Source: an uncultured Anaerolineae bacterium
Lineage (GTDB): Bacteria > Chloroflexota > Anaerolineae > VGOG01
DNA: 64,000 nt
NCBI GenBank assembly: GCA_964510205.1
Contig: CAZEBW010000001.1
Span: 86,226 to 150,225, forward strand
Reading direction: 5' to 3'
Shown piece by piece: positions 1 through 64,000 of the stretch. Position 1 is the first letter of the stretch; each line of letters opens with the position of its first letter. The notes under the pieces are model-generated. The model searched no databases. It had not been told where the DNA came from and worked only from the letters and a program-made list of their open reading frames with translations. The position numbers and the translations under genes are program-made.

Positions 1-332
1 CCGATGATAACCAGCACCTCGTCCTCCACGATCAGCTTCGTCGCTGCGGCGGCGGCGGACTCGCCTTTGGATTCGTTGTCCTCGTGAAGCACTTCGACCT
101 CGTATTTCGTCGCGCCAACCTCCAGGCCACCTGCTGCTTCAATGTCCTCCAGCCACATCTCCAGGGAATACTTAGCCCCCTCCCCTACCTTGGGGATGTC
201 GCCGGTGAGGGGAGCCACGTTGCCGATTTTGATCACCCCTCCATAGGCGGCCTTAGGCGCCTGCTGGCACGCCGACAAGATGGTGACCAGCAAGGTCAGC
301 ACCAAAATTGGAACTACGATCTTCTTAAACAT
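1..332 (-). CDS. ABC transporter substrate-binding lipoprotein, Leu/Ile/Val (LivJ-like) type; N-terminal part only, gene runs off the window
   Basis: Manual minus-strand translation from ATG 332..330 gives MFKKIVVPILVLTLLVTILSACQQ (lipobox) then GVIKIGNVAPLTGD...ESKGESAAAAATKLIVEDEVLVIIG. GGAGGA RBS (complement of 338..343). Absent from the ORF track because it is truncated. Confidence 0.7.
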   Translation of the reverse strand, partial: MFKKIVVPILVLTLLVTILSACQQAPKAAYGGVIKIGNVAPLTGDIPKVGEGAKYSLEMWLEDIEAAGGLEVGATKYEVEVLHEDNESKGESAAAAATKLIVEDEVLVII

Positions 333-720
333 TTGTCTCCTCCTAACGGCCTGTTCTAGCCCTCTATGTTACTTACGGCTGCGGTCAGGAGACCTTGCCG
401 AACTTTCGAGGGCATGTTTTAGCCCAGGAACAATCCCCAGGCCTGTACAAAGGAAACGGAAAAGAGGGGGGACAGCCCCATGCTCCCTCGACTACAACCA
501 CCGTTGACGTCCACTATCACCTCCTTGTCTTCTATTCAGTTTGGTCGAGCAGGTGGGATACTTTGGGTTCAACGACTGAAGAACACGGAGAACCGTCGGC
601 CGTGATGAGAATCGCCTACCAAGCAGAGAAATTAGCGAGGAATTCAGCATCGTCCTTGATCGCCTAAAATCGTTGATGAAGGGGATGTGAGGAACAGTAC
701 AAGTCTGTTCTTGAGTAAAT

Positions 721-749
721 ATTATAGTGCCAAAGCATCGTCTTGTCAA
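721..749 (-). promoter_or_regulatory. consensus sigma-70 type promoter (TTGACA-17 nt-TATAAT) upstream of the binding-protein gene
   Basis: The complement of 744..749 is TTGACA and the complement of 721..726 is TATAAT, with an exactly 17-nt spacer. It would give a ~380-nt leader before ATG 332. Confidence 0.55.
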
Positions 750-788
750 AAACTCAGTGAAGCAACAGTTGGCTCACCGATGAAAAAC

Positions 789-2471
789 TCATGGCTCGCT
801 CAACATCGGGATTCGCACGCCGTGCTGCTTGGCGAACTCAACGGCTTCTGGATACCCCGCGTCGGCGTGGCGCATGATGGCCGTGCCCGGATCGTAGGTC
901 AGCACCCGCTCCAGTCGCGCTGCCGCCTGGGGCGTGCCGTCGGCCACGATGACTTGCCCGGCGTGCTGGGAGTAGCCGATGCCCACCCCGCCGCCGTGAT
1001 GGAAGCTGACCCAGGTCGCGCCACCCACGGCATTGAGGGCGAAGTTGAGGAGGGGCCAGTCGGAGATGGCGTCGGAACCATCGCGCATGCCTTCGGTCTC
1101 GCGGTTGGGCGAGGCCACGCTGCCGCCGTCCAGGTGGTCGCGGCCGATGACGATGGGGGCCTTGATCTCGCCGCTGGCCACCGCCTGGTTGAAGGCCAGG
1201 CCCGCCTTCGCCCGCTCGCCGTAGCCCAGCCAGCAGATGCGGGCCGGCAACCCCTGCCAGGCGACCTCTTCGGCGGCCAACCGAATCCAGCGATTCAGAT
1301 GCTCATCCTGCGGGAAAAGCTCCAAGATGATGCGGTCGGTGACGTAGATGTCTTGCGGATCGCCCGACAGCGCCACCCAGCGGAAAGGCCCCTTCCCCTC
1401 GCAGAAGAGGGGGCGGATGTAGGCGGGCACGAAGCCGGGATAGGCCCACTCGCCGTGGGGATCGCCGCCGACCTTGGCCTCCCTGCAGCCGGCGTTGAAG
1501 GCCTGCTGGCGCAAGTTGTTGCCGTAGTCGAAGACCACCGCGCCCTGCTTCTGGAATTCCAGCATCGCCTCCACGTGGGCGGCCATGGACTCCAGGGAGC
1601 GCCGCGCGTACCCCTCGGCGTCCTTCTGGCGCAGCTCCTCCGCCTCCTCCAGGCTGATGCCACGCGGGACGTACATCAGCGGGTCGTGGGCCGGCGTCTG
1701 GTCGGTGACCACGTCGGGCGTCACGCCGCGCACCACCAGCTCCGGCAAGACGTCGGCGGCGTTGGCGATGAGGCCGATGGACTTGGGCTGCTCCCGTTCC
1801 AGCGACTCCTCGACCAGGGTCATGGCCTCCTCCAGCGTGTCCACCACCACGTCCAGATAGCGCGTATCGAGCCGCCGCTGCGCCCGTCGGGGGTCAATCT
1901 CCACGATGAGTCCCACCCCCTCGTTCATGGTGATGGCCAGCGGCTGCGCGCCGCCCATCTCGCCCAGCCCAGCGGTGAGGACGAACTTACCCTTGAGACT
2001 GGGCCAGCCCTGGGCGTGAGCCAGCGCTCCCAGCGTCTCATAGGTGCCCTGCAGGATGCCCTGGGTGCCGATGTAAATCCAGGAGCCGGCCGTCATCTGG
2101 CCGTACATGATGAGGCCCTCTTTCTCCCAGCGGTCGAAATTCTCCTGCGTGGCCCAGGCGGGGACGATGTTGGAGTTGGCCAAGATGACCCTCGGCGCGT
2201 CGGGGGTTGTCTTGAAGATGCCCACCGGCTTGCCCGATTGCACCAGCAGCGTATCGTCTGGCTGCATGGTCTCCAGGGAGCGCAGGATGGCGTCAAAGCA
2301 GTCCCAGTTGCGAGCCGCTCTGCCCCGCCCGCCGTAAACGATAAGGTTTTCGGGATCGCCGGCCACCTCCGGGTCTAGGTTATTCTGCAACATGCGATAG
2401 GGCGCTTCCAAAAGCCAGCTTCGGCAGTTCAGTTTGGTGCCCCGAGGGGCATGGATTTCACGCGTCATCAC
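789..2471 (-). CDS. hutU: urocanate hydratase
   Basis: 560-aa ORF. N-terminus [34 protein letters not shown] and [23 protein letters not shown] are typical HutU signatures over the full length. Confidence 0.95.
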
Positions 2472-2632
2472 TCAATCTCCTCTCGCTGTTTCAAGCTCCA
2501 AGCGGACGAGGTTCCGCGTTTTCGCCCTTGGACCGTCGTCCAGTCAGAGCGAATTGGATCCACTGAGTCCGCCAACCTACCGACCTCTACCGCGATTATA
2601 CAACGGCTTCCTCGCAATGTCAACAAAATACG

Positions 2633-3478
2633 CTAAAACACGCAGCACTCCCGGCCCTGCACGATGCTCAGACCTAACTCCGTGGCCAGTTGCACAGCTT
2701 GGCGGGCGGGACTCACGATTTTGTTGACGCCAGCCCGCACGGCCAGGGGATCTAAACTAGCCCGATACTTGCCGTGGGGCCGCATGCAGCCGAGGTGAAT
2801 GGGTTTGTCGGGGAAGCGCAGCCGGGCCTCGGCCAGAATGTTGACCACAGCCTCAATGGGCGGCGGCGGGCGGTCGGCGTAGCGGGTGCCGCTGGTGGGC
2901 GTGAAAACGATAAGCACCAGGCCATCTACCCCCAGCTCCCGGAGCTTTTCCATGGCTGCGCGCTCGTGGCCCAGATCGCCCCCGCGCAAGCCGATGGTGA
3001 TGTGGGGAATCACCGTGGTGTGTCGGCGGAGCATCTGGTAAGTTTCCACGTAGTCGGCAATGGTACGATCGAGACCGTAGACCTCGCGGATGGTCTCATC
3101 GTCGCCCACGAAGTCGAAGGACACCACATCGGTGTAGGAGGCGATGGCGCGGAGGTCTGCCTCCTCAATGAGTCCCACGTGCCAATTCATCTTGCGCCCC
3201 TGGCGGATGGCCTTGATCTGTTCAAGATGCTGCGTCACCGGCACGCGCCCTGAGGCGTCGCAGCCGCCGGAGATGAGGCAACTGCTGGCTCCCCCCATCT
3301 CTGCTCGCCAGACGGGGGTCATGTGCTGAAGGTAATACCCGCCGCAGTGGGCACAGTCCAGCTCGCAGTGATGCCCGGTGAGGCTGATGAGGGCGGTATC
3401 GAATGGATACACGAACTCGATTTCTGGGGAGAAGTGCGCCTGTCTGACTCGCCAGGCCTCTTCTAGACTTTCGTACAT
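2633..3478 (-). CDS. radical SAM protein (BioB/LipA-like fold, function unknown)
   Basis: CELDCAHC = CxxxCxxC cluster motif near the N-terminus. ATG 3478 is preceded by GGAG; the track start at 3496 is a TTG without an RBS. Confidence 0.75.
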   Translation of the reverse strand: MYESLEEAWRVRQAHFSPEIEFVYPFDTALISLTGHHCELDCAHCGGYYLQHMTPVWRAEMGGASSCLISGGCDASGRVPVTQHLEQIKAIRQGRKMNWHVGLIEEADLRAIASYTDVVSFDFVGDDETIREVYGLDRTIADYVETYQMLRRHTTVIPHITIGLRGGDLGHERAAMEKLRELGVDGLVLIVFTPTSGTRYADRPPPPIEAVVNILAEARLRFPDKPIHLGCMRPHGKYRASLDPLAVRAGVNKIVSPARQAVQLATELGLSIVQGRECCVF

Positions 3479-3540
3479 GGTGTCTCCAGCTTCCAATTGT
3501 TGACCCTGCTTTCACCTGGGATTCATGGGGTTCGTACTGA

Positions 3541-5599
<2,059 letters not shown>

Positions 5600-5603
<4 letters not shown>

Positions 5604-6439: not shown

Positions 6440-6480
6440 CCTGCTCGTCATGACCGCAATTGCTGAGTTGAACCATCCCG

Positions 6481-7101: not shown

Positions 7102-7269
7102 TCTTCCCTCCCCATTCCGCGCATTTTCGTTTGCCAAGCGTCAGGGGTATTATAGGGTTTCGGTCTCCATTGTCAAACGGGCTACCCAGAGCCAAAAACG
7201 GAGCCGGTGGGAGGGGAGCAATCCTCCTGCCGGCTCCGCTGTTCTGTGATGATCCAAGACGAGAGAGCA

Positions 7270-8070: not shown

Positions 8071-8135
8071 GATTCTGACCTCCTAAATAAGATATAGAAA
8101 ACCAAAAAAACAAAAATATTAGCCAAAAAAAGAGA

Positions 8136-9121: not shown

Positions 9122-9147
9122 TTAGGACAGTGGCAATTACTCAGCCT

Positions 9148-9174
9148 GCTCGGCTTGGATCGCCAGATCCAAGC
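9148..9174. repeat. GGATCGCCAGATCC-core palindromic element (short copy)
   Basis: gctcggcttggatcgccagatccaagc. Near-identical copy at 39696..39722, and the same core occurs twice inside the nrdD spacer. Confidence 0.7.
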
Positions 9175-9284
9175 TACAGTGCTCAAGAGTGGCACGCACT
9201 TCGGCCTGCCAAACCGCTGGATTTGGCAATCCAACGGGAGCCTGAGCAGTTACGGACAGCGAGAATTAGAGAGGGGTAAAGCAG

Positions 9285-10580: not shown

Positions 10581-11417
10581 ATGAAGAAGTGCTTTCGACT
10601 ATCCATCATTTGCATCGTCCTAGCCCTCCCACTGGCCGCCTGTGAGCAACCGACCGTCGTGCCCCCCGACGCTGTCGAGGCATTAGCTACCAGAGCCGTT
10701 GATGGAGACACCATCGAGGTAGAAATCGAGGGGGAGAGCTACAAGGTGCGCTACATAGGCATAGACACCCCGGAGCTGCACCATCCTGAGAAGCCGGTGG
10801 GATATTACGCTCAGGAAGCCTACGAGAAGAACAAGGAGCTGGTGGAGGGGAAAACGGTTTATCTGGAGAAGGACGTCTCGGAGACGGATCGCTACGGACG
10901 CCTGTTGCGCTATGTCTACACAGAAGACGTTTTCGTGAACGCCTACCTGGTGCAGCACGGCTATGCCCAGGCATCAACTTACCCGCCGGACGTCAAATAC
11001 CAGGAGCAGTTCACAGAGTTGCAGCGAGAGGCGAGGGAAGCCGGACGGGGGCTATGGGAGCCTGTCCTGACGCCTGTTTCGGCTGGCGAGGTGGTCATTG
11101 ACGCAGCCTGCTCCCAGTTTGATGCGCCAGGAAACGACCACACCAATCTGAACGAAGAGTACGTCTGCTTCACCAATCAGAGCGATCACTCGGTGGACAT
11201 GACGGGCTGGAGCGTGAACAAGAGGCCCGATATGTGGTACACTTTCCCCGAATTCATCCTGGGTCCAGCAGCCAGCGTCAGATTGCACAGCGGCAAGGAG
11301 ATGGACACGGCCACCGATCTTTACTGGGGCAGCAACGCGGCCCTGTGGCGAAACATCCACGATGCAGTCTACCTCTACGACGCCGACTGGAAGCTGATGG
11401 ACGAGTATTCGTGGTAG
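10581..11417 (+). CDS. secreted thermonuclease (SNase-like) lipoprotein with C-terminal lamin-tail-like domain
   Basis: MKKCFRLSIICIVLALPLAAC lipobox. VDGDTIEV...VRYIGIDTPE...RYGRLLRYVY SNase motifs. C-terminal EEYVCFTNQS...MTGWSV resembles an LTD. Confidence 0.8.
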   Translation: MKKCFRLSIICIVLALPLAACEQPTVVPPDAVEALATRAVDGDTIEVEIEGESYKVRYIGIDTPELHHPEKPVGYYAQEAYEKNKELVEGKTVYLEKDVSETDRYGRLLRYVYTEDVFVNAYLVQHGYAQASTYPPDVKYQEQFTELQREAREAGRGLWEPVLTPVSAGEVVIDAACSQFDAPGNDHTNLNEEYVCFTNQSDHSVDMTGWSVNKRPDMWYTFPEFILGPAASVRLHSGKEMDTATDLYWGSNAALWRNIHDAVYLYDADWKLMDEYSW

Positions 11418-11535
11418 CGCCGGCCGAGTAGGAGCGAGCGGAGGCTACGCATCCGAGCGACGTATCGAGGCCAAGCGGGTCATGCAGAGAGCCGCTCGCT
11501 TGGTTTCGATACGCCTGCGGCTACTCAACCGGCGC
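11417..11535. repeat. nested palindromic element, family 2 (GCGCCGGTTGAGTAGG ... CGTATCGAAACCAAGCG ... inverted)
   Basis: Outer arms gcgccggccgagtagg / ctactcaaccggcgc. Inner arms cgtatcgaggccaagcg / cgcttggtttcgatacg. Second copy at 17270..17397. Confidence 0.8.
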
Positions 11536-11639
11536 TCGCTGGTCCTCTGCCCAAAAGACCCTGGGTGGGTGAAATGAATTGGACAAATTCACCAAGATAG
11601 TGTATACTACTTACCACACAGCGTAACTGTTCATATCGT

Positions 11640-11714
11640 GTCATTGCGAGGCGACGCTTTTCCGCCGAAGCAATCCCCGTGCATTGGAGATTGCTTCGCT
11701 TCGCTCGCAATGAC
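11640..11714. repeat. nested palindromic element, family 1 (GTCATTGCGAGG ... CGAAGCAATCCCC ... GGAGATTGCTTCG ... CTCGCAATGAC)
   Basis: Arms read directly. Other copies at 16051..16136, 57810..57977 and 59510..59597, plus solo arms. Confidence 0.85.
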
Positions 11715-11756
11715 AGCCTGAGTAGTCGCGACACAGCTTGAAAAGGGAGGCAAGAT

Positions 11757-13144: not shown

Positions 13145-13693
13145 CCCTCGTCAGCGAGAGCGTTCTGAAGGGGCCGGCGAGGACGTCCAACGGTCCCTAT
13201 GAATTACTTGAAAACAGAGGAGCTTGCACACTGCCTACCCAGGGCTCCTCAGCCACAGCTATCCATTGCGAAATGTCGAAGGAGCCTCTACCTCTAGTCC
13301 CATTGGCACAGCACACCAAGTTTTGGCTTCGCTATCCCGCCCTGCGCAAGGGCATAGAGACTTACTCAACTATCTCGGTTAGCTCCGAATCCACCTTCCC
13401 CAGCTTTCGGAAGGATTCGAATTTGTGTTTGCGGCACGTGTCATTGGGTATCTAGTATTTGAGCTCACCCAGGTGACCTCCGAGTCGAGGCGAATGCCCT
13501 GAGAGAAAGGGCGACTCGGATGCGTGAAAGAAGGCAGCAATCGCAAGAGTAGAATGTCGTGTTCCTTGTCCTTAGTTCATTCCAGCGGCGAATGCTGCTA
13601 GACAAAACCGTTCTGTCACTGAAGGGGTTCTCTTCGCTCGTTGTTTAGAGCGAGCCGAAGCAACAGACGCTCCTGCGCACCAGCTTAGCGATA

Positions 13694-13730
13694 GCTGTGG
13701 CAACCGATTGCCACGGCTATTTTTTGTTTT
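13694..13730 (+). terminator. rho-independent terminator inside the recA-recX spacer
   Basis: gctgtggcaa-ccga-ttgccacggc stem-loop followed by tattttttgtttt. Confidence 0.6.
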
Positions 13731-13795
13731 GACAGCGTAATCGCCGACGAAGATGTAGCTTCCGACAGCGTGCGTCGCCAGAGGATAAGCCAACC

Positions 13796-16007: not shown

Positions 16008-16027
16008 GCACGCAGCATTCCAGCTCG

Positions 16028-16155
16028 ACAATGTTAACTTCCGCGTCAGTGTCATTGCGAGGCGCGCTGTCTGCGCCGAAGCAATCCCCAAGTCGCTGAT
16101 AGGAGATTGCTTCGCCCCTGCGGGGCTCGCAATGACATTAACTTAACATTGTCCA
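16028..16155. repeat. family 1 nested palindromic element with an extra outer arm pair (GACAATGTTAA / TTAACATTGTC)
   Basis: Core at 16051..16136 matches the other family 1 copies. Outer arms read directly. Confidence 0.85.
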
Positions 16156-16173
16156 ACTAGCCACAAGGACAAA

Positions 16174-16213
16174 GCCCTGCGGACTAGAAGTCAGTTCGCA
16201 GGGCTTCTTTTTG
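16174..16213 (+). terminator. rho-independent terminator after rny
   Basis: gccctgcg ... cgcagggc stem followed by ttctttttg. Confidence 0.55.
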
Positions 16214-17217: not shown

Positions 17218-17442
17218 GTGACTAGTACACATGGGCGTAAATCCTTCCCCGGTTAGGCGTTGGGCGAGAGCGCCGGTTGAGTAGGAGCAGAGCGACGTAT
17301 CGAAACCAAGCGGCTTGTGAAAAGCACTGTTTTGGGCAGAAAACGCTTGGTTTCGATACACTTCTCCGCTGGCGCTACGAAGTTACTCAACCGGCGCTTG
17401 TCCTGTAACTACCGAAGGATTTCCGCCGCGATGTACTAGTCG
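17218..17442. repeat. family 2 nested palindromic element with a third outer arm pair (GACTAGTACA...AAATCCTTC)
   Basis: Core 17270..17397 matches 11417..11535. Outer arms gactagtacacatgggcgtaaatccttc and gaaggatttccgccgcgatgtactagtc are inverted complements. Confidence 0.8.
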
Positions 17443-17480: not shown

Positions 17481-17532
17481 GGAGCCCCCAACTTGTTGGG
17501 GGGCAAAGAACCCGAACAAGTTCGGGACTCCG
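17481..17532. repeat. pair of hairpins, family 5 (CCGAACAAGTTCGGGACTCC)
   Basis: ggagcccccaacttgttgggg and cccgaacaagttcgggactcc. Second locus at 37356..37376. Confidence 0.65.
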
Positions 17533-23815: not shown

Positions 23816-23832
23816 CAGAAACCAGGTTTTTG
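23816..23832. repeat. solo arm of family 4 element (CAGAAACCAGGTTTTTG)
   Basis: Identical to the left arms at 25441 and 36006. Confidence 0.5.
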
Positions 23833-25338: not shown

Positions 25339-25363
25339 ATTGCCAGATCGGTGCAAACGCAAA

Positions 25364-25403
25364 CACGGGGCGACCAGAATATTCTGGTCGCCCCGTGTTT
25401 TTG
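25364..25403 (+). terminator. rho-independent terminator after the sirtuin gene
   Basis: cacggggcgaccagaat/attctggtcgccccgtg perfect 17-bp stem followed by ttttt. Confidence 0.75.
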
Positions 25404-25440: not shown

Positions 25441-25540
25441 AGAAACCAGGTTTTTTGGCACTTGCCATACGGAGTGCACTTGGTTTCAGACGGTTTCTGT
25501 AGGTGCGGGCAGTTTCTCTGGCGAGAAAAACCTGGTTTCT
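25441..25540. repeat. family 4 palindromic element (AGAAACCAGGTTTTT ... AAAAACCTGGTTTCT)
   Basis: Terminal inverted repeats read directly. Second full copy at 36006..36105. Confidence 0.8.
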
Positions 25541-28741: not shown

Positions 28742-28956
28742 CCTGCCTTCCGCCCCTCTCTGGGGGTGAACCCGATGCCCTGCGCCCGAAGAACGGCCAT
28801 AGTATACTACAACTTGCCGATATACACAAGCAGATCAGTACAAACACCGAGAAACAGTGCACAATGCCGGCAAATACAGTTGTCCCAAGAGCATGGCGTG
28901 AAAAAGCACAAGAGCCACCAGGCTGGTATGCCGGTGGCTCATTACTTTGGATGACT

Positions 28957-29095
28957 CCCCCGAAGAAAGCAGCGTGAAGACCCTAAAGGTTTTGAATAAG
29001 AAGGTTCGAATGGATTTTCTCGCACTCAGCGTCTGTTCCAGGCAAAGAAATCGAGCTTTCTATCGAAAACCTTTAGGGTCTTGGCAAAGAGCCAC
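28957..29095. repeat. family 3 MITE-like element (TIR AGACCCTAAAGGTTTT / AAAACCTTTAGGGTCT), copy A
   Basis: Core 28978..29081 aligns by eye to 33083..33186 in the same orientation, with about 11 mismatches in 104 nt. Flanks are also similar. Confidence 0.85.
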
Positions 29096-29705: not shown

Positions 29706-30397
29706 AATCCTCTCACCTCCACCTCCCCTACCCATCTCTCCGCTGCCTGGGCCATCTCCAGCAGCGTCTGGGCTGGATAGGGAGCGATCTCTCTAAAGCG
29801 GGCGGCAAGGGCTCCCTGGGGACGAAATTGCTGCAGGACGTACTTCTCAGCACCGCTGATCAGCCTGGCCATCTCCTCGACGTCCTCAGGAGCCACGATG
29901 CCCAGCGCCACCGTGGTGCGGAACTCGTGGTCTATGCCCGACGACAGGATCAGCCGCACGCTCTCTTCGATCCGCTGCACGTCCACCGGCACGCCTGCCG
30001 CCAGATGATACTTCGACAGCGGGGCCTTGATGTCCATAGCCACGTAATCCAGCAGCTCCTGCTCCAACAGCTCTCTGAGCGCCTGGGGGCGATAGCCGTT
30101 GGTGTCCAGTTTGATGGCCAAGCCCAGTCCTTTCAGCTCGCCCACGAAACTGCCGATGCCTGGCCGCAAGGTTGGCTCGCCGCCGGTGATCACCACCCCA
30201 TCAATCAGACCCCGTCGCCGTGTCAGGAACCGGAAGATCTCGACGGGGTCAAGGTCTGGCAAGGTCTGCGGATGTAGCACTAGCTTCGAATTCTGACAGT
30301 AGGGACAGCGAAGGTTGCAGCCGCCGGTGAAGACGACGGTGGCGATCCTCCCCGGATAGTCAATGAGCGAGGTTTTCACCCACCCCTTGATCTGCAT
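29702..30397 (-). CDS. nrdG: anaerobic ribonucleoside-triphosphate reductase activating protein (radical SAM)
   Basis: WVKTSLIDYPGRIATVVFTGGCNLRCPYCQN and GVVITGGEPT. Confidence 0.92.
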   Translation of the reverse strand: MQIKGWVKTSLIDYPGRIATVVFTGGCNLRCPYCQNSKLVLHPQTLPDLDPVEIFRFLTRRRGLIDGVVITGGEPTLRPGIGSFVGELKGLGLAIKLDTNGYRPQALRELLEQELLDYVAMDIKAPLSKYHLAAGVPVDVQRIEESVRLILSSGIDHEFRTTVALGIVAPEDVEEMARLISGAEKYVLQQFRPQGALAARFREIAPYPAQTLLEMAQAAERWVGEVEVRGL

Positions 30398-30549
30398 CTG
30401 TCAACTGTCCTGACCTCCACCACGTATTCCTCGCGCTCGGCATACTCCTGCTTCTTGCCCACGTTCCAGTTCCGCACGGGACGCAGATAGCCGACAATGC
30501 GAGAGTAAACCTCACAAGGCACCTTTCTCTTCGACTGCGAGTTTGTCAT
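30376..30549 (-). CDS. nrdD: stand-alone glycyl-radical segment of class III RNR (C-terminal piece of NrdD, 57 aa)
   Basis: MTNSQSKRKVPCEVYSRIVGYLRPVRNWNVGKKQEYAEREEY contains the RxxGY glycyl-radical loop. AAGGAG lies 7 nt before ATG 30549. The longer track ORF start is inside the palindromic spacer. Confidence 0.65.
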   Translation of the reverse strand: MTNSQSKRKVPCEVYSRIVGYLRPVRNWNVGKKQEYAEREEYVVEVRTVDRCRSRGG

Positions 30550-30575: not shown

Positions 30576-30807
30576 GACAAAAGCGACACGCTCGCTCGCG
30601 ATGGATTGTCAAATCGCATTGCGGTAAAAGTAACACTTCCACGCTCGCGATGGATTGCGTGCAAGCTTCGCTTGCCTACCATCGCCCGGCGGCTGGATCT
30701 GGCGATCCAGCCGGAGCAAAGTGTGACTTTTACCCTAGTGCGTCAAATCCGTCGCTTTCCGTGGCTGGATCTGGCGATCTAATCGGAGCGAGGTGCGACT
30801 TCTGCCC
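30576..30807. repeat. nested palindromic element between the two nrdD ORFs (four related arms, GGATCGCCAGATCC core)
   Basis: Direct arms 30576..30608 and 30623..30657. Inverted arms 30689..30735 and 30763..30807. Central hairpin gcaagcttcgcttgc. Confidence 0.8.
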
Positions 30808-32924: not shown

Positions 32925-33062
32925 GCCGTGGCATGAAGTGCCACGGCTACGAAGCTACCACCCCGTAAACGGGGTTCCTAAGCCCGATTCATCGGGCGCT
33001 GCTCTGTAGCACGGCCACGCCTGTCCTGAGCAAGGTCGAAGGGTCATGGCCGTGTGCTCCTA
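32925..33062. repeat. cluster of short GC-rich hairpins in the nrdD leader
   Basis: gccgtggcatgaagtgccacggc, accccgtaaacggggt, gcccgattcatcgggc, gcacggccac...catggccgtgtgc. Confidence 0.45.
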
Positions 33063-33065
33063 CCC

Positions 33066-33200
33066 TGAAAAAAGCGGCGTGGAGACCCTAAAGGTTTTGA
33101 AAATGAAGGTTCGAATTGATTTTCTTGCATTCAGCGCCTGTTCCAAGCAGAGAAAACAAGCTTTCTATCAAAAACCTTTAGGGTCTTGCCAGCAGCCCAC
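33066..33200. repeat. family 3 MITE-like element, copy B
   Basis: See copy A. Same orientation. Confidence 0.85.
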
Positions 33201-34453: not shown

Positions 34454-34559
34454 CGCGAGCTACTGATAATGATACCACAAAAGGGCTGGATTGGCAAGGG
34501 AAAAAGCCATAATTTGGCACGAATCTCGAAATTTTAAGCTTTTAGCGAGACCATAAGCA

Positions 34560-34594
34560 GTAATCGTGACGGATGGTGAATCCGTCACGATTAC
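34560..34594. repeat. 15-bp perfect-stem hairpin, GACGGAT family, downstream of ftsZ
   Basis: gtaatcgtgacggat-ggtga-atccgtcacgattac. Confidence 0.6.
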
Positions 34595-34892
34595 TGAAGT
34601 AATGGAAAAAGATGCACAGCAGGATGGCCAGGCAATGAGCACGGCCAACCCCACACTGCCGCCGCGTCAACGAGTGACGTGTGGCAGCGGCGCCTTACTC
34701 CATTGGCGCACTGAATCCCAGCCTAACTTTCCGAGAGATGTCCAGGGGATCGCCAAGCAGGCGGAACTAGGCCGCCGCTTATTGGGCCAGGCTTACAACA
34801 CCAAGCGACAAACGCGCACTCGTCCTGAGGCCAGTGCACTTAACTGGCATCAAAGGGATTCCCCAGAGCAATCTTAGCTCCACTGACCTTGC

Positions 34893-36005: not shown

Positions 36006-36105
36006 CAGAAACCAGGTTTTTGGCTGACATGAGACACCTTCTCACACCCCAGGAGACCCCAAGAGAACAAACCGTTTGCTCAGGTAGGGAAAAAACCTGG
36101 TTTCT
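36006..36105. repeat. family 4 palindromic element in the ftsA-ftsZ spacer
   Basis: cagaaaccaggttttt ... aaaaacctggtttct. Confidence 0.8.
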
Positions 36106-37355: not shown

Positions 37356-37376
37356 CCGAACAAGTTCGGGACTCCG
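37356..37376. repeat. family 5 hairpin (CCGAACAAGTTCGGGACTCCG) in the sbp-ftsA spacer
   Basis: Identical 21-mer at 17512..17532. Confidence 0.6.
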
Positions 37377-39677: not shown

Positions 39678-39695
39678 TCCACTCTCCTATCTTTT

Positions 39696-39722
39696 GCTCG
39701 GCCTGGATCGCCAGATCCGGGC
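39696..39722. repeat. GGATCGCCAGATCC-core palindromic element in the murB-ddl spacer
   Basis: gctcggcctggatcgccagatccgggc. Confidence 0.7.
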
Positions 39723-39753
39723 TTTTCGACGGCCCGGGGACGGGCCTCGGAGC

Positions 39754-40701
39754 TTATGCCAGCCACTCTCCTACTAACTCGATCTCCAGTTCCAAATCAA
39801 TGTCGAATTGCTCCCGAACCTGCTCTTGAGCCAGGTCAATCAGGGCCTTGACGTCAACCGCCTTGGCCTGCCCCAGATTGACGATGAAATTGGCGTGTTT
39901 GGGCGAGATCTGCGCGTCGCCGATGCGCGTCCCCTTGAGGCCGGCCTGTTCGATAAGGAATCCCGCTGGATACTGCCTCGTCCTTTTGAAGACGCTGCCG
40001 ACGCTGGGCTCGGTGGGTTGCTTTGCCTCTCGACGCCGCGTGTACTCGGCCATCTTCTCCAAGAGGGCCTGGGGCGGTTCTCGATGCAATCGGAACTCCG
40101 CCGACGTGATGACCTCTTCGCCAAAGCCCTCGTCCTTCGCCGCCTGCCCTTTGAACCTGCTCGTCCTGTAGCCAAAGCCCAACTCCGTGGCGGACAACTC
40201 GCGCACCTTGCCGTCGGGCGCCAGCACGGTGGCCTTCTGCGTCACGTCGCCGATGTAGCCGTCATAGGCGCCGGCGTTGCCCACGATGGCCCCTCCCACA
40301 GAGCCGGGGATGCCCACCGCCCACTCCAACCCCGCCAGGCCCCGCCGCGCGCTCTCACGGGCCAGGTCCCACAGCATTGCCCCACTCTCGGCGTACAAGA
40401 CGGCCTCCGGCCCATGAGCATTTTCGAACCTTGTCTCCTGTCCCAAATTCTCTATCACCAAGCCGCGGATGCCCTTGTCCGCCACCAAGATGTTGGTGCC
40501 CCGACCGATGATCAGGTAGGGTATGCCCCGCTCTCGCGCCCGCGTGACCAACTCGACCAATTCCTGCGCGCTCGCGGCCACTGCGTAGAAATCCGCCGGG
40601 CCGCCGATGCGAAAGGAGGTGTGGAGCGACATGGGCTCATTCCGGCGCACGCCGCCACCCAACGCCCTCGCGATCTCCCTACTAGGTAGTTCTCCCTTCA
40701 C
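39754..40701 (-). CDS. murB: UDP-N-acetylenolpyruvoylglucosamine reductase
   Basis: [43 protein letters not shown]. Confidence 0.95.
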
Positions 40702-44855: not shown

Positions 44856-46064
44856 TCAATCCCTTTTCAACAACCGCGTTCTGCCTAATCTGTGGAGCTC
44901 CTCCGCAATGCGCCGGGCCGCATCTGGCCTGGCCAGAGCCCGCGCCCGCTCGCTCATCTCGGCCAGGGCCGCCTCGTCGTTTAGGAGCTCTAGCAGCGTC
45001 GGCAACAGCCTCTCCCCCAGATCAGCGTCGGCGACCTTAACCGCCGCCCCGCGACTGACCAGGTAGTCGGCGTTGAGCTCTTGATGCTGCCCGGCGTAGG
45101 GATAGGGCACCAAGATGCTGGGCAAGCCCAGGGCCGGGAACTCGCCCAGAGTCGCCGCTCCAGCCCGCGCCACCGCCAGGTCCGCCGCAGCCAAAGCGCT
45201 GGGCATCTCCTCATGCAGATAGGCGTATGCGCGGTAGCGGCTTCGCAACCGATCGGGCAACTTGGTCCTCCTTTCCATCACCCACTCGGCGTCCAAGGGA
45301 CCACAGATGTGGATGACCTGGCAAGACTCCAACAGGCGCTCCAGGCGCTGGCTCAGCGCCAGGTTGATGCTGCGAGCGCCCCGGCTGCCGCCAAAGACGG
45401 TGACGGTCTTCGCGCCCGCCTCCAGACCGAAGGCTTCCCTGGCCTCGATTTGGTCGGCGGCGAAGAACTCGGCCCGCACTGGGTAGCCCGCCGTCAGGAC
45501 CTTGCTCTGCGGGAAATACGCTTCCACCTCCGCAAAGGACACCGCAACCCGCTTCGCCAGGCGGCTCAGGGCGCGGACGGCCAAGCCCGGCTCCAGGTCG
45601 GGCAGCAACACCAAGATCGGCACGCGGCGAAGCCAGGCGGCTGTGGCCACGGGCGCGCACACGTACCCTCCCGTGACCAGGACGACGTCGGGAGAGAAGT
45701 CGCGCACGATGCCCAGCGATTGCACGAAGCCCGCCAGCATCTTGCAGAGATTGCCGGCCACCGTCCAGGGCGCCAGGCCGCGCAGCCCCCCCGCTGAGAT
45801 AGCCGCGAAGGGCAGTCCTTCTCGCTTGACGATCCCTTCCTCCACCCCTCCCCGGCTGCCTACGTATAGGAAATTCGTACAATCGTAGATTCGTAGATTC
45901 GTAGATTCGTAGATTCGTAGATCCGTAGATTCGTAGATTCGTAGATTCGATTCCGAATTCACGAATCCCGAGTTTACGAATCCCGAATGTACCAATTTTT
46001 CAACCACGGCGAGAATTGGATATACGTGGCCGCCCGTCCCGCCGCCCGAAATCATAATGCGCAA
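44856..46064 (-). CDS. murG: undecaprenyldiphospho-muramoylpentapeptide beta-N-acetylglucosaminyltransferase with a repeat-encoded insert after the first helix
   Basis: (L)RIMISGGGTGGHVYPILAV aligns with the MRIAISGGGTGGHIYP start of Bacillus MurG, so TTG 46064 is preferred. GTG 46088, ATG 46055 and ATG 46121 are alternatives. Confidence 0.9.
   Translation of the reverse strand: MRIMISGGGTGGHVYPILAVVEKLVHSGFVNSGFVNSESNLRIYESTDLRIYESTNLRIYDCTNFLYVGSRGGVEEGIVKREGLPFAAISAGGLRGLAPWTVAGNLCKMLAGFVQSLGIVRDFSPDVVLVTGGYVCAPVATAAWLRRVPILVLLPDLEPGLAVRALSRLAKRVAVSFAEVEAYFPQSKVLTAGYPVRAEFFAADQIEAREAFGLEAGAKTVTVFGGSRGARSINLALSQRLERLLESCQVIHICGPLDAEWVMERRTKLPDRLRSRYRAYAYLHEEMPSALAAADLAVARAGAATLGEFPALGLPSILVPYPYAGQHQELNADYLVSRGAAVKVADADLGERLLPTLLELLNDEAALAEMSERARALARPDAARRIAEELHRLGRTRLLKRD
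45884..45990. repeat. octamer tandem repeat (CGTAGATT)x8 plus 15-mer x2, inside murG and translated in frame
   Basis: cgtagattcgtagattc... then ttcacgaatcccgagtttacgaatcccgaa. Encodes SGFVNSGFVNSESNLRIYESTDLRIYESTNLRIYDCT. Confidence 0.9.
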
Positions 46065-51379: not shown

Positions 51380-51383
51380 CGGA

Positions 51384-57706: not shown

Positions 57707-57747
57707 ACTTCACTCACTCCTTCGGAAAGAACGTGACTACTCAGATT

Positions 57748-57977
57748 GTCATTGCGAGCTGCTCCATAGCGCGTTCGCGCTACTCATCGGATAAGAAACA
57801 AACGTAGGTGTCATTGCGAGGAACGGCTCTGGCAGTGGGCGTTATCCTATCACCGCCGTGGCCGGCCTGAGCGGTAGCGCTGACCAACAGGCGAGTGACG
57901 AAGCAATCTCCCACGCACATTGAAGGTAATTGCTGGTGGGGGATTGCTTCGTCGCAAAAAACGCTCCTCGCAATGAC
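57748..57977. repeat. family 1 element, enlarged composite copy plus solo arm
   Basis: Solo gtcattgcgagc at 57748. Full copy 57810..57977 with arms gtcattgcgagg / cgaagcaatctccc / ggggattgcttcg / ctcgcaatgac and an expanded interior. Confidence 0.8.
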
Positions 57978-58008
57978 ACGGGCTGAGCAGTTACCGCGTA
58001 GCCAGCGC

Positions 58009-59187: not shown

Positions 59188-59509
59188 GTTCCACCTCCCG
59201 TTGGTGATTGGCTCGGGCTAAGCTACGAAGCAACAGTAATTATACAGTTTAAGTCGTCATTTGGCAAAATCACATCCACAGCGATTGAAAGCCGCCTTCA
59301 CATCCTGTCATTGCGAGCCGACCCTTGGACAGGCTCAGAGCAGGCGGCGAGCAAGCCCTTACCTTGCACACGCTTGACACCACTCGTTTTTTCTGTTACA
59401 ATCGAAAAGGTGATGCGACATGTGGGCGCCCAACGCGAACACTTTGCCAGCCAAAGGCTCCCGGGTAGTCTCCTTATGGAGTGTTGCTACGCCAACACGG
59501 GCTGTTTGT

Positions 59510-59597
59510 GTCATTGCGAGGCGCGCTGTTTGCGCCGAAGCAATCCCCAACTCGCTCGTAGGAGATTGCTTCGCTCCTTACGGTCGCTCGCAATGAC
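59510..59597. repeat. family 1 nested palindromic element (plus solo arm at 59307..59318)
   Basis: gtcattgcgaggcgcgctgtttgcgccgaagcaatcccc...ggagattgcttcgc...ctcgcaatgac. Nearly identical to the 16051..16136 copy. Confidence 0.85.
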
Positions 59598-59659
59598 ACG
59601 GCAGCAACACCCAAGCGGGGCACCACCGGCTCCCGCACATTGATGGTTATTGGGGTAAG

Positions 59660-62600: not shown

Positions 62601-62770
62601 AAGACGATGGCCGGGGCTTCGATGAAAAGCAGCTTGCAGGCCGTGAAGCCCCGCAGCGTGGCATAGGGCTGTTAGGGATACGAGAAAGGGCGACCTTTCT
62701 GGGAGGCAGCCTCAGTATCCAATCGCATCCAGGGGAGGGAACGCGGCTGGCGATAGAAATGCCTGTGTGA
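59660..62770 (+). CDS. multidomain sensor histidine kinase: MEDS - PAS x2 - GAF x2 - HisKA_3 - HATPase_c
   Basis: GDHLCCIYETEEEHRAVLTPFLRQGLESGEKVVYIV (MEDS). PAS segments with ...RDVTERK. LHDELGQALTAI (HisKA_3 His box). GRGFD...GIGLLGIRERA (ATPase). ATG 59684 is an alternative start. Confidence 0.9.
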   Translation: MGRMGGGIMDHSNPKPGDHLCCIYETEEEHRAVLTPFLRQGLESGEKVVYIVDARTAEAIRDYLRQDGLDVEPRLASRQLSILTRDDAYMREGVFDPEGMIALLRAETKQALAEGYPALRVTGEMTWALRGLPGSERLIEYEAKLNEFLPGNQCLAICQYDRRRFDSEVLLDVLRTHPIAVIGADIYDNFYYIPPDDLLGGDLAAVELGYWLENLAKRKGTEEALRKSEEKYRNILESIEDGYYEVDIAGNFTFFNDALCQMLGYSRDEMMGMNNRQYMDKENAKKVYQTFNRVYTTGEPDKGFDWEIIRKDGAKKFVEASASLIKNSEGEPIGFRGIARDVTERKRMEEALKASEEHYRSLFDRVPVGLYRTTPEGQVLDANSALVQMLGYPDRESLLAVAVTDGYEDPEERTRWQALIEREGVVRDFEVQWRRHDGTIIWVRDNARVVQDGEGQVLYYEGAVEDITERKQRTMEISTMLEVTKAVSSTLHLEEVLTLISEQLVKAMGVDGCALSRWDQEADAVVTWIEFRRQDPEWADEPGTTYALDDFPATRAVLETRQPLAIHVSDLDADAAELAYMRKVESASLLMLPLAVGDRVVGLVELDQSEYERVFTAAEIRLCQALANQAAIAIRNARLFEAERNQRELAEALQEAAAAVSSTLDLDGVLDHILEQVERAVAGDAFSVMLIEEDIAHLARWRGYELPGEKTQPLPFDIPMTKYPNLIKMARTGRPIIVPDTALDPDWVPAARDQEWRRSYVGVPIRLGGATVGFLGASGTRPGHFGPEDARRMEALASHAATAIGNARLLDAINEHRTDLQRLSVQLLSAQEEERRRLSLELHDELGQALTAISFDLAAIEKELPPELIPRIREILAETGSLVNEVDDQVRELALDLRPYMLDDLGLVPALRWYVNRYAKRLNIEVEFEAIDLEDRLTADMETALYRVVQEALTNVARHAQANRVSVCLERKVSTVTASIEDDGRGFDEKQLAGREAPQRGIGLLGIRERATFLGGSLSIQSHPGEGTRLAIEMPV

Positions 62771-62815
62771 TTTGCGATTTGCGATTTGCGATTTGCGATT
62801 GACAAATCGAAAATC
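62768..62815. repeat. heptamer hairpin (GATTTGC)x4 ... AAATCGAAAATCGC, left flank of the four-helix-bundle gene
   Basis: Starts on the kinase stop codon: tgatttgcgatttgcgatttgcgatttgcgattgacaaatcgaaaatcgc. Confidence 0.85.
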
Positions 62816-62830
62816 GCGGAGGGGAGCGAA

Positions 62831-63184
62831 ATGGATGAGGAGGATTTGAAAAGGCGTACGAAGCAGTTTGCGTTGCGGGTGATTCACCTGGTAGAAGCCT
62901 TGCCACGGACGCGAACGGCTCAGGTCGTTGGCGATCAACTCTTGCGTTCGGCGACATCGGTGGCAGCGAATTATCGGGCCGCGTGTCGGGCACGTTCACA
63001 GGCCGATTTCGTGCACAAGTTGGGTATCGTGGAGGAAGAGGCCGACGAATCCCTCTTCTGGCTGGAAATGGTGGCGGAAACTGACCTGATGCCAGCGCCA
63101 CGTGTGCAGGATCTGATCCAAGAGGCTGATGAACTCACGGCCATCTTCGTTGCCTCCCGCAAAACAGCCAAGAAAAAGAAGTGA
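62831..63184 (+). CDS. four-helix-bundle protein (23S rRNA intervening-sequence protein / Avd-like family)
   Basis: FALRVIHLVEALPRTRTAQVVGDQLLRSATSVAANYRAACRARSQADFVHKLGIVEEEADESLFWLEM is the family signature. ATG 62831 with a GGAGGGGAG RBS. Confidence 0.85.
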   Translation: MDEEDLKRRTKQFALRVIHLVEALPRTRTAQVVGDQLLRSATSVAANYRAACRARSQADFVHKLGIVEEEADESLFWLEMVAETDLMPAPRVQDLIQEADELTAIFVASRKTAKKKK

Positions 63185-63238
63185 TTTTCGATTCGCGAAT
63201 GAGAATCGAAAATCGAAAATCGGCAATCGAAAATCGAG
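63183..63238. repeat. heptamer hairpin GATTTTCGATTCGC ... (GAATCGAAAATCG)n, right flank of the four-helix-bundle gene
   Basis: gattttcgattcgcgaatgagaatcgaaaatcgaaaatcggcaatcgaaaatcga. Complementary unit type to the left flank. Confidence 0.85.
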
Positions 63239-63249
63239 AGGGGTGGGTT

Positions 63250-63903
63250 ATGAACAAGATAAGAGTCCTGTTGGCCGAGGATCATACCATCGTTCGCAAG
63301 GGGCTGCGCGCCCTTCTGGAGGGCGAGGCAAACATAGAGGTGATAGGGGAAGCCGAGGATGGGAGAGAGGCCATTCAGAAGGTTGGACAGTTGCACCCCG
63401 ACCTGGTACTGATGGATATCACCATGCCGGCCCTCAACGGCCTGGAGGCTACCCGCCAAATCAAAAAGCTGTTTCCTGGGGTCAAGGTTTTGATTCTGAC
63501 CATGCACGCTAACGAGGAGTACATCTTTCAAATCCTGCGGGCCGGGGCTTCAGGATACGTGGTCAAGAAAGCAGCGCCCACAGAACTGGTCTCGGCCATC
63601 CAGGCCGTTCACCGTGGCGATTCCTTCCTCAGCCCCTCCATCTCCAAGGGCGTCATCGAAGAGTATATCCGGCAGGCCGAGGCGATGACCCTGGACAGTT
63701 ATGATAAACTTACCAACCGCGAACGAGAGGTGCTGCAACTGGTCGCCGAGGGTCACTCGACCCGAGGGATCGCCGAGTTGCTGCACATAACCGAAGGAAC
63801 AGTTCGCAGCCACAGAGCCCATCTGATGAACAAGCTCGATATTCACAGCACGGCAGAACTGACCCAATACGCCAGCCGTAAGGGAGCGATCAGTATAGAG
63901 TAA
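63250..63903 (+). CDS. NarL/FixJ-family response regulator (receiver + LuxR-type HTH)
   Basis: IRVLLAEDHTIVRKGL...DLVLMDITMP receiver. LTNREREVLQLVAEGHSTRGIAELLHITEGTVRSH HTH. Confidence 0.93.
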   Translation: MNKIRVLLAEDHTIVRKGLRALLEGEANIEVIGEAEDGREAIQKVGQLHPDLVLMDITMPALNGLEATRQIKKLFPGVKVLILTMHANEEYIFQILRAGASGYVVKKAAPTELVSAIQAVHRGDSFLSPSISKGVIEEYIRQAEAMTLDSYDKLTNREREVLQLVAEGHSTRGIAELLHITEGTVRSHRAHLMNKLDIHSTAELTQYASRKGAISIE

Positions 63904-63940
63904 TGCCTTAAGATAAGACCTCGCGCTTGCAATGATCAAA

Positions 63941-63971
63941 AGACCCTGCGTTTTCGCAGGGTCTTTTTTTG
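63941..63971 (+). terminator. rho-independent terminator after the response regulator gene
   Basis: agaccctgcg-tttt-cgcagggtct followed by ttttttg. Confidence 0.75.
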
Positions 63972-64000
63972 TTGAAAAATCAACGTTTTTTGTGCCAAAA

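Follow-up and report, generated by a model that had tools for sequence, protein, structure and literature searches.

Dispersed palindromic repeats in the spacers

The window analysed here is a 64-kb stretch of DNA from an uncultured Anaerolineae bacterium that originates from a microbial mat sample. Non-coding DNA makes up 12.7% of it (8.1 kb of spacers), and in these spacers we find six dispersed families of palindromic repeats, A to F, with 19 loci and ~1.56 kb in total, all 19 loci lying within non-coding DNA. Family A, with the layout GTCATTGCGAG..CGAAGCAATC..GATTGCTTCG..CTCGCAATGAC, has four full copies and two solo arms; B and D have two copies each, C has two and a half, and E and F are represented by five and three hairpins, respectively. 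The usual starting point of an element is 0–45 nt 3' of the upstream gene's stop codon. Allowing at most one mismatch, the 11-mer GTCATTGCGAG occurs 11 times in the window against about one expected occurrence, each time in non-coding DNA. Predicted stabilities (dG) range from -39 to -74 kcal/mol; against shuffled sequences, the folding z-scores of A and B are -5 to -8 and those of C and D -2 to -3. An earlier note on this DNA had counted at least seven families at about 25 loci; the repeats are real and lie where it placed them, but the count comes down to six dispersed families at about 20 loci.

Contigs of the source metagenome terminate at C, D and E elements and at the nrdD spacer, where depth is 30–58x against 7–10x; overall, depth increases 3- to 600-fold at the elements. 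Since short-read contigs break at the elements, mis-joins are conceivable, but it is scarcely credible that the repeats are assembly artefacts or chance matches: the window sequence was recovered word-for-word in two metagenome runs, the same elements occupy the same sites in independent assemblies of related species, and both the counts and the folding energies are far beyond chance. Families A to F are real, multi-copy repeats of the REP/MITE kind, confined to non-coding DNA. The hairpins of E and F are single and REP-like, those of B, C and D longer and MITE-like.

Family A

The first full copy of family A (11638..11716; dG -40.3, z -5.5) is an inverted dimer with a TGTC tag. With a promoter-like site (11580-11608) on one side and the rpsT start (11757) on the other, it is probably part of the rpsT 5' UTR, and its arms reach a metagenome depth of 215–6400x against a baseline of ~10x. 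Copy 2 (16045..16142; dG -53.9, z -6.2) is found 3' of the rny stop codon (16007), enclosed by an outer palindrome (16022-16040 / 16140-16158) and followed on its 3' side by a canonical terminator-like hairpin (16172-16206). Copy 3 (57810..57977) starts 32 nt past the stop of a coiled-coil gene, and a long insert separates its outer and inner left arms; a solo left arm (GTCATTGCGAG, 57748..57758) is located in the coiled-coil/selB spacer. The coiled-coil gene and a kinase gene have divergent promoter-like sites, and a second solo left arm (59307..59317) is situated between these. Copy 4 (59508..59597; 93% to copy 2, z -6.3) lies 3' of a TTGACA-17-TACAAT sequence (59374-59402) and 63 nt 5' of the kinase start, which would probably put it inside the kinase 5' UTR. 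Such a position, in two probable 5' UTRs, is unusual for REPs.

All four full copies in the window share the inverted-dimer layout and the TGTC tag, which is also present on the solo arm at 59307. The stem opens with 5 bp, ATTGC/GCAAT, and continues through a conserved GAG/CGAA internal loop into a variable second stem with a 7-nt loop. The motif is present in at least 120 genomes from many phyla, and 87 full dimers were found among the loci collected outside the window. These 87 copies have a median length of 86 nt and Y-Y/R-R ends, with C or T preceding GTC (58 have C and 26 have T at position -1), making the tag CGTC or TGTC in 84/87. The tails, GCAAT-CCC(C) in the window and GCAAT-CCA(G) in alphaproteobacterial copies, pair with each other within dimers. 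None of the 87 full copies is surrounded by a target duplication, and no neighbour protein recurs within 1.2 kb of the motif at 120 loci. Genes flanked by paired A copies are ordinary, again with no recurrent protein.

In these sequence features, family A resembles the CGTC/TGTC-tagged REP superfamily described by Di Nocera, De Gregorio & Rocco (2013, BMC Genomics 14:522; PMC3733652). Neisseria dRS3 and Rickettsia RPE-4/RPE-6 belong to that superfamily, which is distributed over many phyla and lacks a dedicated transposase; its members mostly form inverted dimers and are found 3' of genes, where the neighbouring ORFs are unidirectional or convergent. The unit has an 8-9 bp stem starting A-T, T-A, a 4-5 nt loop, a 3-nt unpaired tail CCA and the terminal tetranucleotide CGTC, with the variants TGTC and CCTC; loops are variable in Bradyrhizobium CGTC-1, and dimers nested in other palindromes have already been described (PMC3733652). 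Family A shares the tag, the AT-first start of the stem (ATTGC..GCAAT), the inverted dimers that are sometimes nested in palindromes, the intergenic position near the 3' end of the upstream gene, and the distribution over many phyla without a linked transposase. Its tail is likewise short and C-rich, but reads CCC(C) and not CCA in the window. It differs in having a 5-bp stem and a conserved GAG/CGAA internal loop followed by a variable GC stem or none. The paper reports Chloroflexota for GTAG repeats, not for CGTC repeats.

The earlier note had found no transposase in the 64 kb, which holds (no such domain occurs in any of the 57 called genes of the window), and had singled out this absence and described the nested design as differing from that of classical single-hairpin REPs. 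Neither feature sets these elements apart, since CGTC REPs without a dedicated transposase, inverted REP dimers and REPs inside palindromes are all on record (PMC3733652).

Family A can also be compared with the REPIN/RAYT system and with the BIMEs of E. coli. As in both, its inverted doublets form one hairpin of ~70–110 nt, and it is non-autonomous, multi-copy and intergenic and lacks target duplications. In REPIN/RAYT systems, each REP carries a GTAG head, and somewhere in the genome a RAYT (Y1 transposase) gene is flanked by the same REPs. Family A lacks the GTAG head, and the 64-kb window contains no RAYT gene.

Families B, C and D

Copy 1 of family B (11417..11535), a three-level hairpin with dG -73.7 and z -5.4, starts right at the SNase stop codon and has a metagenome depth of 25–53x against ~10x. 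Copy 2 (17270..17397; dG -66.2, z -7.9) occupies the ECF sigma/anti-sigma spacer. The two copies of family C are found between the convergent SIR2 and GAF genes (25441..25540), where the source contigs break at the element, and between ftsA and ftsZ (36006..36105). Both are exactly 100 nt long, the first with perfect 15-nt terminal inverted repeats, and a solo terminal repeat (23817..23831) is located in the divergent ArsR/endoV region. Family D copy 1 (28955..29086), 132 nt long and 87% to copy 2, lies 11 nt past the stop of a PsbP-like gene, and the stretch 28949-29061 is absent from a low-depth contig of run X9. Copy 2 (33060..33191) lies 5' of nrdD and coincides with a contig break and a depth of 53–100x. 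The terminal inverted repeats of B, C and D have arms of 15–34 nt. No target duplication is evident in the flanks of B or C, and the empty ftsA/ftsZ sites of relatives resolve none.

Bacterial MITE-like palindromes that are co-transcribed with genes include the Neisseria Correia elements, enterobacterial ERIC and pneumococcal RUP/BOX. Families B, C and D are similar to these in length (100–130 nt), terminal inverted repeats and long hairpins, in their insertion into spacers, including those inside operons, and in a presence that varies among relatives. In contrast to those systems, a target duplication is found here only at an insert containing family E, and the interiors of the two C copies are unrelated. 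We know of no parent insertion sequence for B, C or D, and no autonomous insertion sequence with the termini of B, C, D or the E-containing insert was present in the window or in the fetched loci of relatives.

The two C copies raise the question of whether some families are protein-binding DNA sites, such as operators or nucleoid or gyrase sites, instead of mobile DNA. Their termini are conserved while their interiors are completely different, each terminus is near-palindromic (AAACCnGGTTT), and the two sites stand 85 nt apart in elements of identical length; moreover, E. coli BIMEs bind gyrase and IHF. We regard this as very improbable, however. Identical termini occur at unrelated junctions that differ among relatives, some orthologous sites are empty, and the interior of the ftsA/ftsZ element is conserved among species, as descent predicts; no candidate binding protein was identified.

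Families E and F

A family E hairpin (GCTTGGATC-GCCA-GATCCAAGC; 9147..9175, z -4.6) and a weaker copy (9217-9234) lie in the divergent IclR/S41 spacer. Two further E-type hairpins (30693-30710 and 30765-30782) are part of a palindrome composite at 30576..30807, the site of a contig break with a depth of 32–60x. This composite fills the spacer of nrdD, which is naturally split into two pieces in the window, as the earlier note had recognised; nrdD is split in the same way in a relative, L152, where the spacer is only ~60 nt long. Family F comprises two hairpins (CCCCAACTTGTTGGGG and CCCGAACAAGTTCGGG; 17486..17532) 45 nt past the ECF sigma stop, the second of them terminator-like on the minus strand, and a third (37356..37376) in the sbp/ftsA spacer.

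The murB/ddl insert (39690..39762; 73 nt) consists of a GGCCCG hairpin and an E hairpin (39695-39723). It has an 11-bp direct duplication at its two ends (39679-39689 and 39763-39773; gene-strand sequence TAGGAGAGTGG), with which the end of murB is rebuilt and the ribosome-binding site of ddl preserved. Among the elements examined, this is the only target duplication. Read directly from the sequence, the E stems at 9147 and 39695 show compensatory differences, and the murB/ddl stem has an A-C mismatch on the mRNA strand and G-T on the non-transcribed strand. Mixed hairpins at one site, seen here and in the nrdD spacer, are another feature shared with BIMEs.

A PF05635 cassette between kinase and regulator

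The segment between the histidine kinase and its response regulator, listed in the earlier note as a repeat element (62768..63249), proved to be of another nature. Inserted there, on the plus strand, is a PF05635 gene (62831..63184), overlooked in the earlier note, for a 117-aa four-helix bundle of the 23S rRNA IVS protein/Avd-like type (E = 8e-17). It is preceded by a heptamer array, (GATTTGC)x4, with a hairpin and a Shine-Dalgarno site (62771..62830) and followed by a complementary array of GAAAATC-type heptamers (63183..63249), right after which the response regulator starts (63250). Neither array occurs elsewhere in the window, and the dispersed families therefore number six and not seven; as a candidate seventh family, the heptamer flank of the PF05635 gene was ruled out.

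In the predicted fold, the 5' array pairs with the 3' array across the ORF. Across 70 related cassettes, the upstream flank has a median of 9.5 7-mers in common with the reverse complement of the same cassette's downstream flank; when the flanks come from different cassettes, the figure is 2. PF05635 cassettes bounded by complementary heptamer arrays are widespread. The gene is kept with its neighbours under strong purifying selection. PF05635 proteins are encoded by the intervening sequences of 23S rRNA in Leptospira and Coxiella, which lie within the 23S rRNA gene and are cut out of its transcript by RNase III. Like those, the insert is a PF05635 ORF within complementary terminal repeats predicted to pair; unlike them, it lies in a protein-coding operon and has terminal repeats made up of arrayed 7-nt units. 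The window contains no rRNA genes.

Distribution over junctions and among relatives

The elements had been proposed to prefer junctions between functionally coupled genes. Such a preference is not supported: 12 of 47 co-directional junctions are occupied, compared with 4 of the 9 junctions whose genes converge or diverge (odds ratio 0.43, p = 0.26), in a test of 56 junctions that has low power and infers operons from gene direction only. Several of the junctions listed in the earlier note are not coupled pairs; SNase/rpsT, rny/anti-sigma, SIR2/GAF and coiled-coil/kinase include two convergent pairs, one divergent pair and one with a promoter-like site between the genes.

Occupancy was also compared among related genomes, the best of which has an FtsA identity of 91% to the window. 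At ftsA/ftsZ, the C element is present in six relatives, partly present in L008, absent from L005 and L009, and replaced by a different palindrome in L003. The F hairpin at sbp/ftsA is found in the window, L001 and L004 and is missing from L007 and L010, while the hairpins of L003 and L005 at this site are different ones. At murB/ddl, 12 relatives were compared; in 8 of them (including L001-L005, L010 and L012), the two genes overlap by 8 nt, and in three more they overlap or abut; only L008 has a similar insert. L008 is not the closest relative, and its sharing of the site could reflect either one old event plus recombination or site-specific reinsertion. The closest relative, L001, has family A at murD/ftsW, C at cvpA1/murC and a C half at ddl/ftsQ, all of them sites that are empty in the window. 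The window carries no element at most of the ~20 tight dcw junctions, and the relatives have theirs at others. The retention of C at ftsA/ftsZ in seven species and of F at sbp/ftsA in three could reflect function instead of slow loss.

This retention bears on the possibility that selection maintains the elements as cis-acting RNA modules (stabilisers, RNase III/E sites or attenuators) that fix the relative expression of partner genes. In E. coli, REPs protect the upstream mRNA in malE-malF. The hairpins here are very stable and several lie within probable transcription units, namely the probable 5' UTRs of rpsT and the kinase and the region 5' of the rny terminator; a terminator-like F hairpin separates ECF sigma and anti-sigma, and two E stems differ in a compensatory manner. 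REPs are also generally thought to act as RNA (PMC3733652). We nevertheless consider this explanation unlikely. Co-directional junctions are not enriched, occupancy varies among sister genomes whose operons are healthy with the orthologous sites empty, and a single junction may carry unrelated families, as in L003. In addition, covariation in the conserved ftsA/ftsZ element is limited to 1 of 19 predicted pairs, and the mismatch in the murB/ddl stem falls on the mRNA strand. The earlier suggestion that the elements were placed to set partner expression is not supported, given the same lack of enrichment and near-absence of covariation in C and the many empty dcw junctions.

Origin and possible consequences

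In our judgement, it is quite probable that several families of ordinary non-autonomous palindromic repeats have colonised the spacers and persist where insertion is tolerated. Families A to F are new members of an already known kind of repeat. The variable occupancy among sister genomes, the target duplication at murB/ddl and the multi-copy state favour the selfish-element option that the earlier note had also raised. No transposition event or mobilising enzyme was seen in the window or in the loci of relatives; the copying enzyme would be supplied in trans, either encoded elsewhere in the genome or borrowed. For family A, the lack of target duplication would fit a hairpin-guided single-strand (HUH/Y1-like) route, or another. 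Copies might land widely, with the survivors being those that spare coding sequences and translation signals, and the apparent placement of the elements at junctions would then result from this survivorship filter. By analogy with the E. coli REPs, some very stable, co-transcribed elements may incidentally influence how mRNA decays or is processed. Any such effect on mRNA, if real, would be a consequence of the distribution of these elements and not its cause.

Gene content and source of the window

Open reading frames were called by codon-position GC content and, with Pfam scans of 60 ORFs, resolved into 57 genes. These include hutU, tgt, a rpsT-recA-recX-rny group, an ECF sigma/anti-sigma pair, nrdR-nrdD-nrdG and a complete division and cell-wall (dcw) cluster from mraZ to ftsZ; the right end carries selB, a coiled-coil gene and a MEDS-PAS-GAF histidine kinase with a LuxR-type regulator. 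Pfam found no transposase domain among the products of the 57 genes, in agreement with the statement in an earlier note that the 64 kb hold no transposase. No species-representative genome has an FtsA more than 91% identical to that of the window, the nearest being uncultured Anaerolineae MAGs, and the window sequence is present word for word in two microbial-mat metagenome runs. No RNA run holding the window organism was found; the few metatranscriptomes that share 5–8% of words with the window all come from other wetlands.

Palindromic repeats of the spacers

Comparison of the spacer DNA (8.1 kb) with the window itself, together with repeat finders and motif scans, confirmed that the palindromic repeats reported in the earlier note are real, while reducing its at least seven families and about 25 loci to six dispersed families, A to F, at 19 loci. 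Family A, with the order GTCATTGCGAG..CGAAGCAATC..GATTGCTTCG..CTCGCAATGAC, has four full copies and two solo arms. Family B is a three-level hairpin of about 125 nt (two copies), family C a 100-nt element with perfect 15-nt terminal repeats (two copies and a solo end), family D a 132-nt element (two copies), family E a 9-bp stem with a GCCA loop (five copies) and family F the sequence CCGAACAAGTTCGG (three copies). Together they make up about 19% of the non-coding sequence of the window (1,559 nt); none of the 19 loci overlaps coding DNA, and the majority of copies begin 0–45 nt past the stop of the upstream gene. An 11-mer of family A occurs 11 times in the window, where about one occurrence would be expected by chance, and the folding energies of families A and B have z = −5 to −8. 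At gathering or E-value thresholds no element matched an Rfam family; apart from a tRNA, the sole match was to a miRNA and is meaningless. Full-text searches of the literature with the repeat sequence and its spurious translations returned unrelated primers or no match, and a search of a plasmid collection gave three matches, all unannotated.

Some spacers carry other structures. The spurious miRNA match falls on a perfect, single-copy 40-nt palindrome (25361–25400) with AAA/TTT on its sides, 23 nt past the SIR2 stop and between convergent genes, which looks like a bidirectional terminator. A perfect, single-copy inverted repeat at 34558–34596 with 17-bp arms (CAGTAATCGTGACGGAT / ATCCGTCACGATTACTG), in the 481-nt ftsZ-nrdR spacer, might serve either as an operator or as a terminator. 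The recA|recX spacer (13145–13795), unusually long at 651 nt and free of all repeat families, contains two terminator-like hairpins (13620–13636 and 13690–13721) and a 60-aa ORF (13273–13455) with no Pfam match.

Distribution over gene junctions

The preference of the elements for junctions between functionally coupled genes, as proposed in the earlier note, was not borne out. Among 56 junctions, 12 of the 47 co-directional ones were occupied versus four of the nine convergent or divergent ones (Fisher odds ratio 0.43, p = 0.26), a trend opposite in direction to the one claimed, in a test of low power in which operons were inferred from gene direction alone. Some of the supposed partners are not arranged as such: rny|anti-sigma and SIR2|GAF are both convergent, and coiled-coil|kinase is divergent, with a promoter-like site facing each way. 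Another promoter-like site lies between the family B and family A copies upstream of rpsT. At the 3' end of rny a canonical terminator-like hairpin comes after the A copy, which is therefore not itself the terminator. A position between coupled genes would be an outcome of survivorship in a gene-dense, operon-rich genome.

Turnover among related genomes

Using the window proteins, we mapped the dcw loci of 14 related genomes. At ftsA|ftsZ the C element is found in six relatives and in truncated form in L008; L005 and L009 lack it and have a spacer of 56–60 nt, and in L003 an unrelated palindrome replaces it. At sbp|ftsA the F hairpin is found in three genomes and missing in two, while L003 and L005 have another hairpin instead. 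In the closest relative, L001, an A copy lies at murD|ftsW, a C copy at cvpA1|murC and half a C at ddl|ftsQ, all three of which are empty in the window. Since the junctions filled differ among relatives, occupancy turns over between sister genomes, which fits mobile or at least dispensable DNA rather than purposeful placement.

The murB|ddl junction is an example of an element entering an overlapping gene pair. In most relatives the two genes overlap by 8 nt; in the window a 73-nt insert (39690–39762) lies between 11-bp direct duplications, giving murB a new end (VGEWLA, then stop) and keeping the ddl ribosome-binding site. Both the end of the upstream gene and the ribosome-binding site of the downstream one are restored by the 11-bp duplication. 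L008 has an insert at the identical point, with the E hairpin shared and the second hairpin different.

In the source runs, contigs stop exactly at the nrdD spacer and at elements of families C, D and E, where the summed depth is 30–58x versus 7–10x. On a finer scale family B reaches 25–53x versus about 10x, and the family A arms 215–6,400x versus about 10x, a figure that includes other mat organisms. A 3x-deep contig from run X9, an aquatic metagenome, joins 28948 to 29062 and so lacks 28949–29061, and with it most of the D element; a variant with a deletion, or the route of the assembly across the repeat, could account for it. We rejected it as a clean empty D site, as it is only 3x deep and keeps one D arm.

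The best-supported explanation, and in our judgement a probable one, is that these are non-autonomous repeats for which an enzyme acting in trans would make the copies, and which would persist only at sites where they do no harm. It is unlikely that they are instead functional RNA elements placed between partner genes: the C element at ftsA|ftsZ, alone in being conserved across species, shows almost no covariation, with one covarying pair in a consensus folding that left out the left terminal repeat of the relatives and hence the outer stem.

Family A and the CGTC/TGTC-tagged REPs

The pattern GTCATTGCGAG-N5-35-CGAAGCAATC was found in at least 120 genome stretches, against about 8 expected by chance (596 Gb). 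The matches listed come from Alpha-, Gamma- and Deltaproteobacteria, Chloroflexota, Bacteroidota, Cyanobacteria, Patescibacteria, Planctomycetota, Zixibacteria, Sporomusa and Helicobacter rodentium, and among them nearly all are complete hairpins. In 87 full copies (median 86 nt) the ends read Y-Y-GTCATTGCGAG...CTCGCAATGAC-R-R, the base preceding GTC is C in 58 and T in 26, and target duplication is absent. When all ORFs lying no more than 1.2 kb from any of 171 family A matches were clustered, no linked protein family emerged, and the genes between paired A copies in L201 and L222 are ordinary.

These features appear to match, albeit imperfectly, the CGTC/TGTC-tagged REPs of Di Nocera et al. 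2013 (PMC3733652). As described there, the REPs have AT-first stems and short C-rich tails, form mostly inverted dimers that are sometimes found inside other palindromes, occur in five phyla, and lie after genes, between unidirectional and convergent ORFs; they are said there to have "no dedicated transposase". As far as written descriptions can be compared, the family A unit differs in having a 5-bp stem and a conserved GAG/CGAA internal loop, where the published stem is 8–9 bp. The A copy after rny is nested in an outer palindrome, ACAATGTTAAC..GTTAACATTGT (16022–16158), much like the published REP dimers inserted mid-way in longer palindromes. The two- and three-level nesting that the earlier note set apart from the classical single-hairpin REP design is the usual appearance of such dimers in that description, and no new design.

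Insertion in murG and the split nrdD

Within coding DNA, the window MurG (minus strand) has an in-frame insert of about 32 aa after the GGGTGGHVYP motif, encoded by an 8-nt tandem array, about nine units of CGAATCTA (45857–45957, within a locus at 45857–45990). At this position the MurG of relatives has a different insert or lacks one, which marks it as an intragenic hotspot for repeats.

The nrdD gene is indeed in two pieces, as previously proposed, both on the minus strand. The large ORF (30831–32903), encoding a 690-aa body, ends short of the glycyl-radical motif and is followed by a 57-aa ORF (30376–30549), which has its own ribosome-binding site (AAGGAGA, 6 nt before the ATG) and encodes ...CEVYSRIVGYLRPVRNWNVGKKQEY, the glycyl-radical peptide. 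In a comparison that took in L083–L087, L134, L139 and L152, other Chloroflexota and Leptospirales had the split, whereas the two closest relatives had one fused gene. We rejected the palindrome as the cause of the split, as relatives are split too, with short spacers. The joined NrdD ends had no sequence match in the PDB. A review covers split reductases of class I and of class II; in our literature search no account of a split class III enzyme came up.

A PF05635 cassette between kinase and regulator

The insert between the kinase and regulator genes (62771–63249), listed in the earlier note as a repeat element, turned out to be a gene. At 62831–63184 it encodes a highly conserved 117-aa four-helix-bundle protein of PF05635 (Avd-like / 23S-IVS). 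Heptamer arrays border the gene, (GATTnnn)n on the upstream side and (nnnAATC)n on the downstream side; a motif scan found these arrays nowhere else in the window. Distant kinase/regulator homologues have 5–30 nt between the two genes, and a response-regulator search found no close orthologous locus. Close relatives keep the kinase|PF05635|regulator order, with 94–96% identity for the PF05635 protein, 79% for the regulator and 45–73% for the kinase. At third codon positions the identity is 0.78–0.86 for the PF05635 gene versus 0.71–0.72 for the regulator, which shows an old gene, under strong purifying selection and long co-inherited, and not a recent selfish insert or parasite.

Homologues with 68–79% identity lie between another kinase and regulator, at cas6|cas1, between two regulators, after uvrB and, in two copies, at livH|livG|livF, all of them flanked by 7-nt repeat arrays. 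The cassette is in the sense orientation, beside or between unrelated genes, and the same architecture recurs in unrelated contexts in about 90 related cassettes (L361–L388, L389–L468). A wide sample showed no excess of co-directional neighbours (27/50, with crude ORF calls). The flanks at 80 additional metagenome loci had a median best lag-7 self-identity of 0.60–0.64 versus 0.36 in controls. Each cassette has array sequences of its own, complementary within that cassette: the upstream flank and the reverse-complemented downstream flank share a median of 9.5 7-mers when both belong to one cassette and 2 when they belong to different cassettes, a covariation favouring pairing across the ORF. 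The predicted fold of the window cassette likewise pairs the upstream with the downstream array across the ORF.

In rRNA, intervening sequences are cut out by RNase III. We tentatively suggest that the PF05635 genes and their arrays are a widespread and apparently undescribed kind of cassette whose arrays, if paired in the transcript, might lead to excision by RNase III, splitting the mRNA of the host operon; we regard this as possible rather than probable. Our literature search found no description of PF05635 with heptamer arrays, the domain appearing there only as Avd-like or as a candidate CRISPR-associated gene. Heptamer arrays with no PF05635 gene nearby were seen in the sbp|ftsA spacer of L012 (9880–9990, GACCAnn-type) and in the nrdD spacer of L083 (GATTCGC/GATCCGC-type); they may be cassette remnants or an independent repeat class.

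Implications

With these repeats an uncultured Anaerolineae joins the many bacteria known to have REP/MITE-like repeats in their spacers; little else changes. Through the family A motif, the known range of CGTC/TGTC-type repeats would widen to Chloroflexota and many more phyla, which sharpens the question of how, with no dedicated transposase, a 26-nt A arm can stay almost the same from phylum to phylum. The leads of wider interest are the two-piece NrdD and the PF05635 cassette; excision of the latter, if true, would extend the notion of intervening sequences from rRNA to operons that encode proteins.
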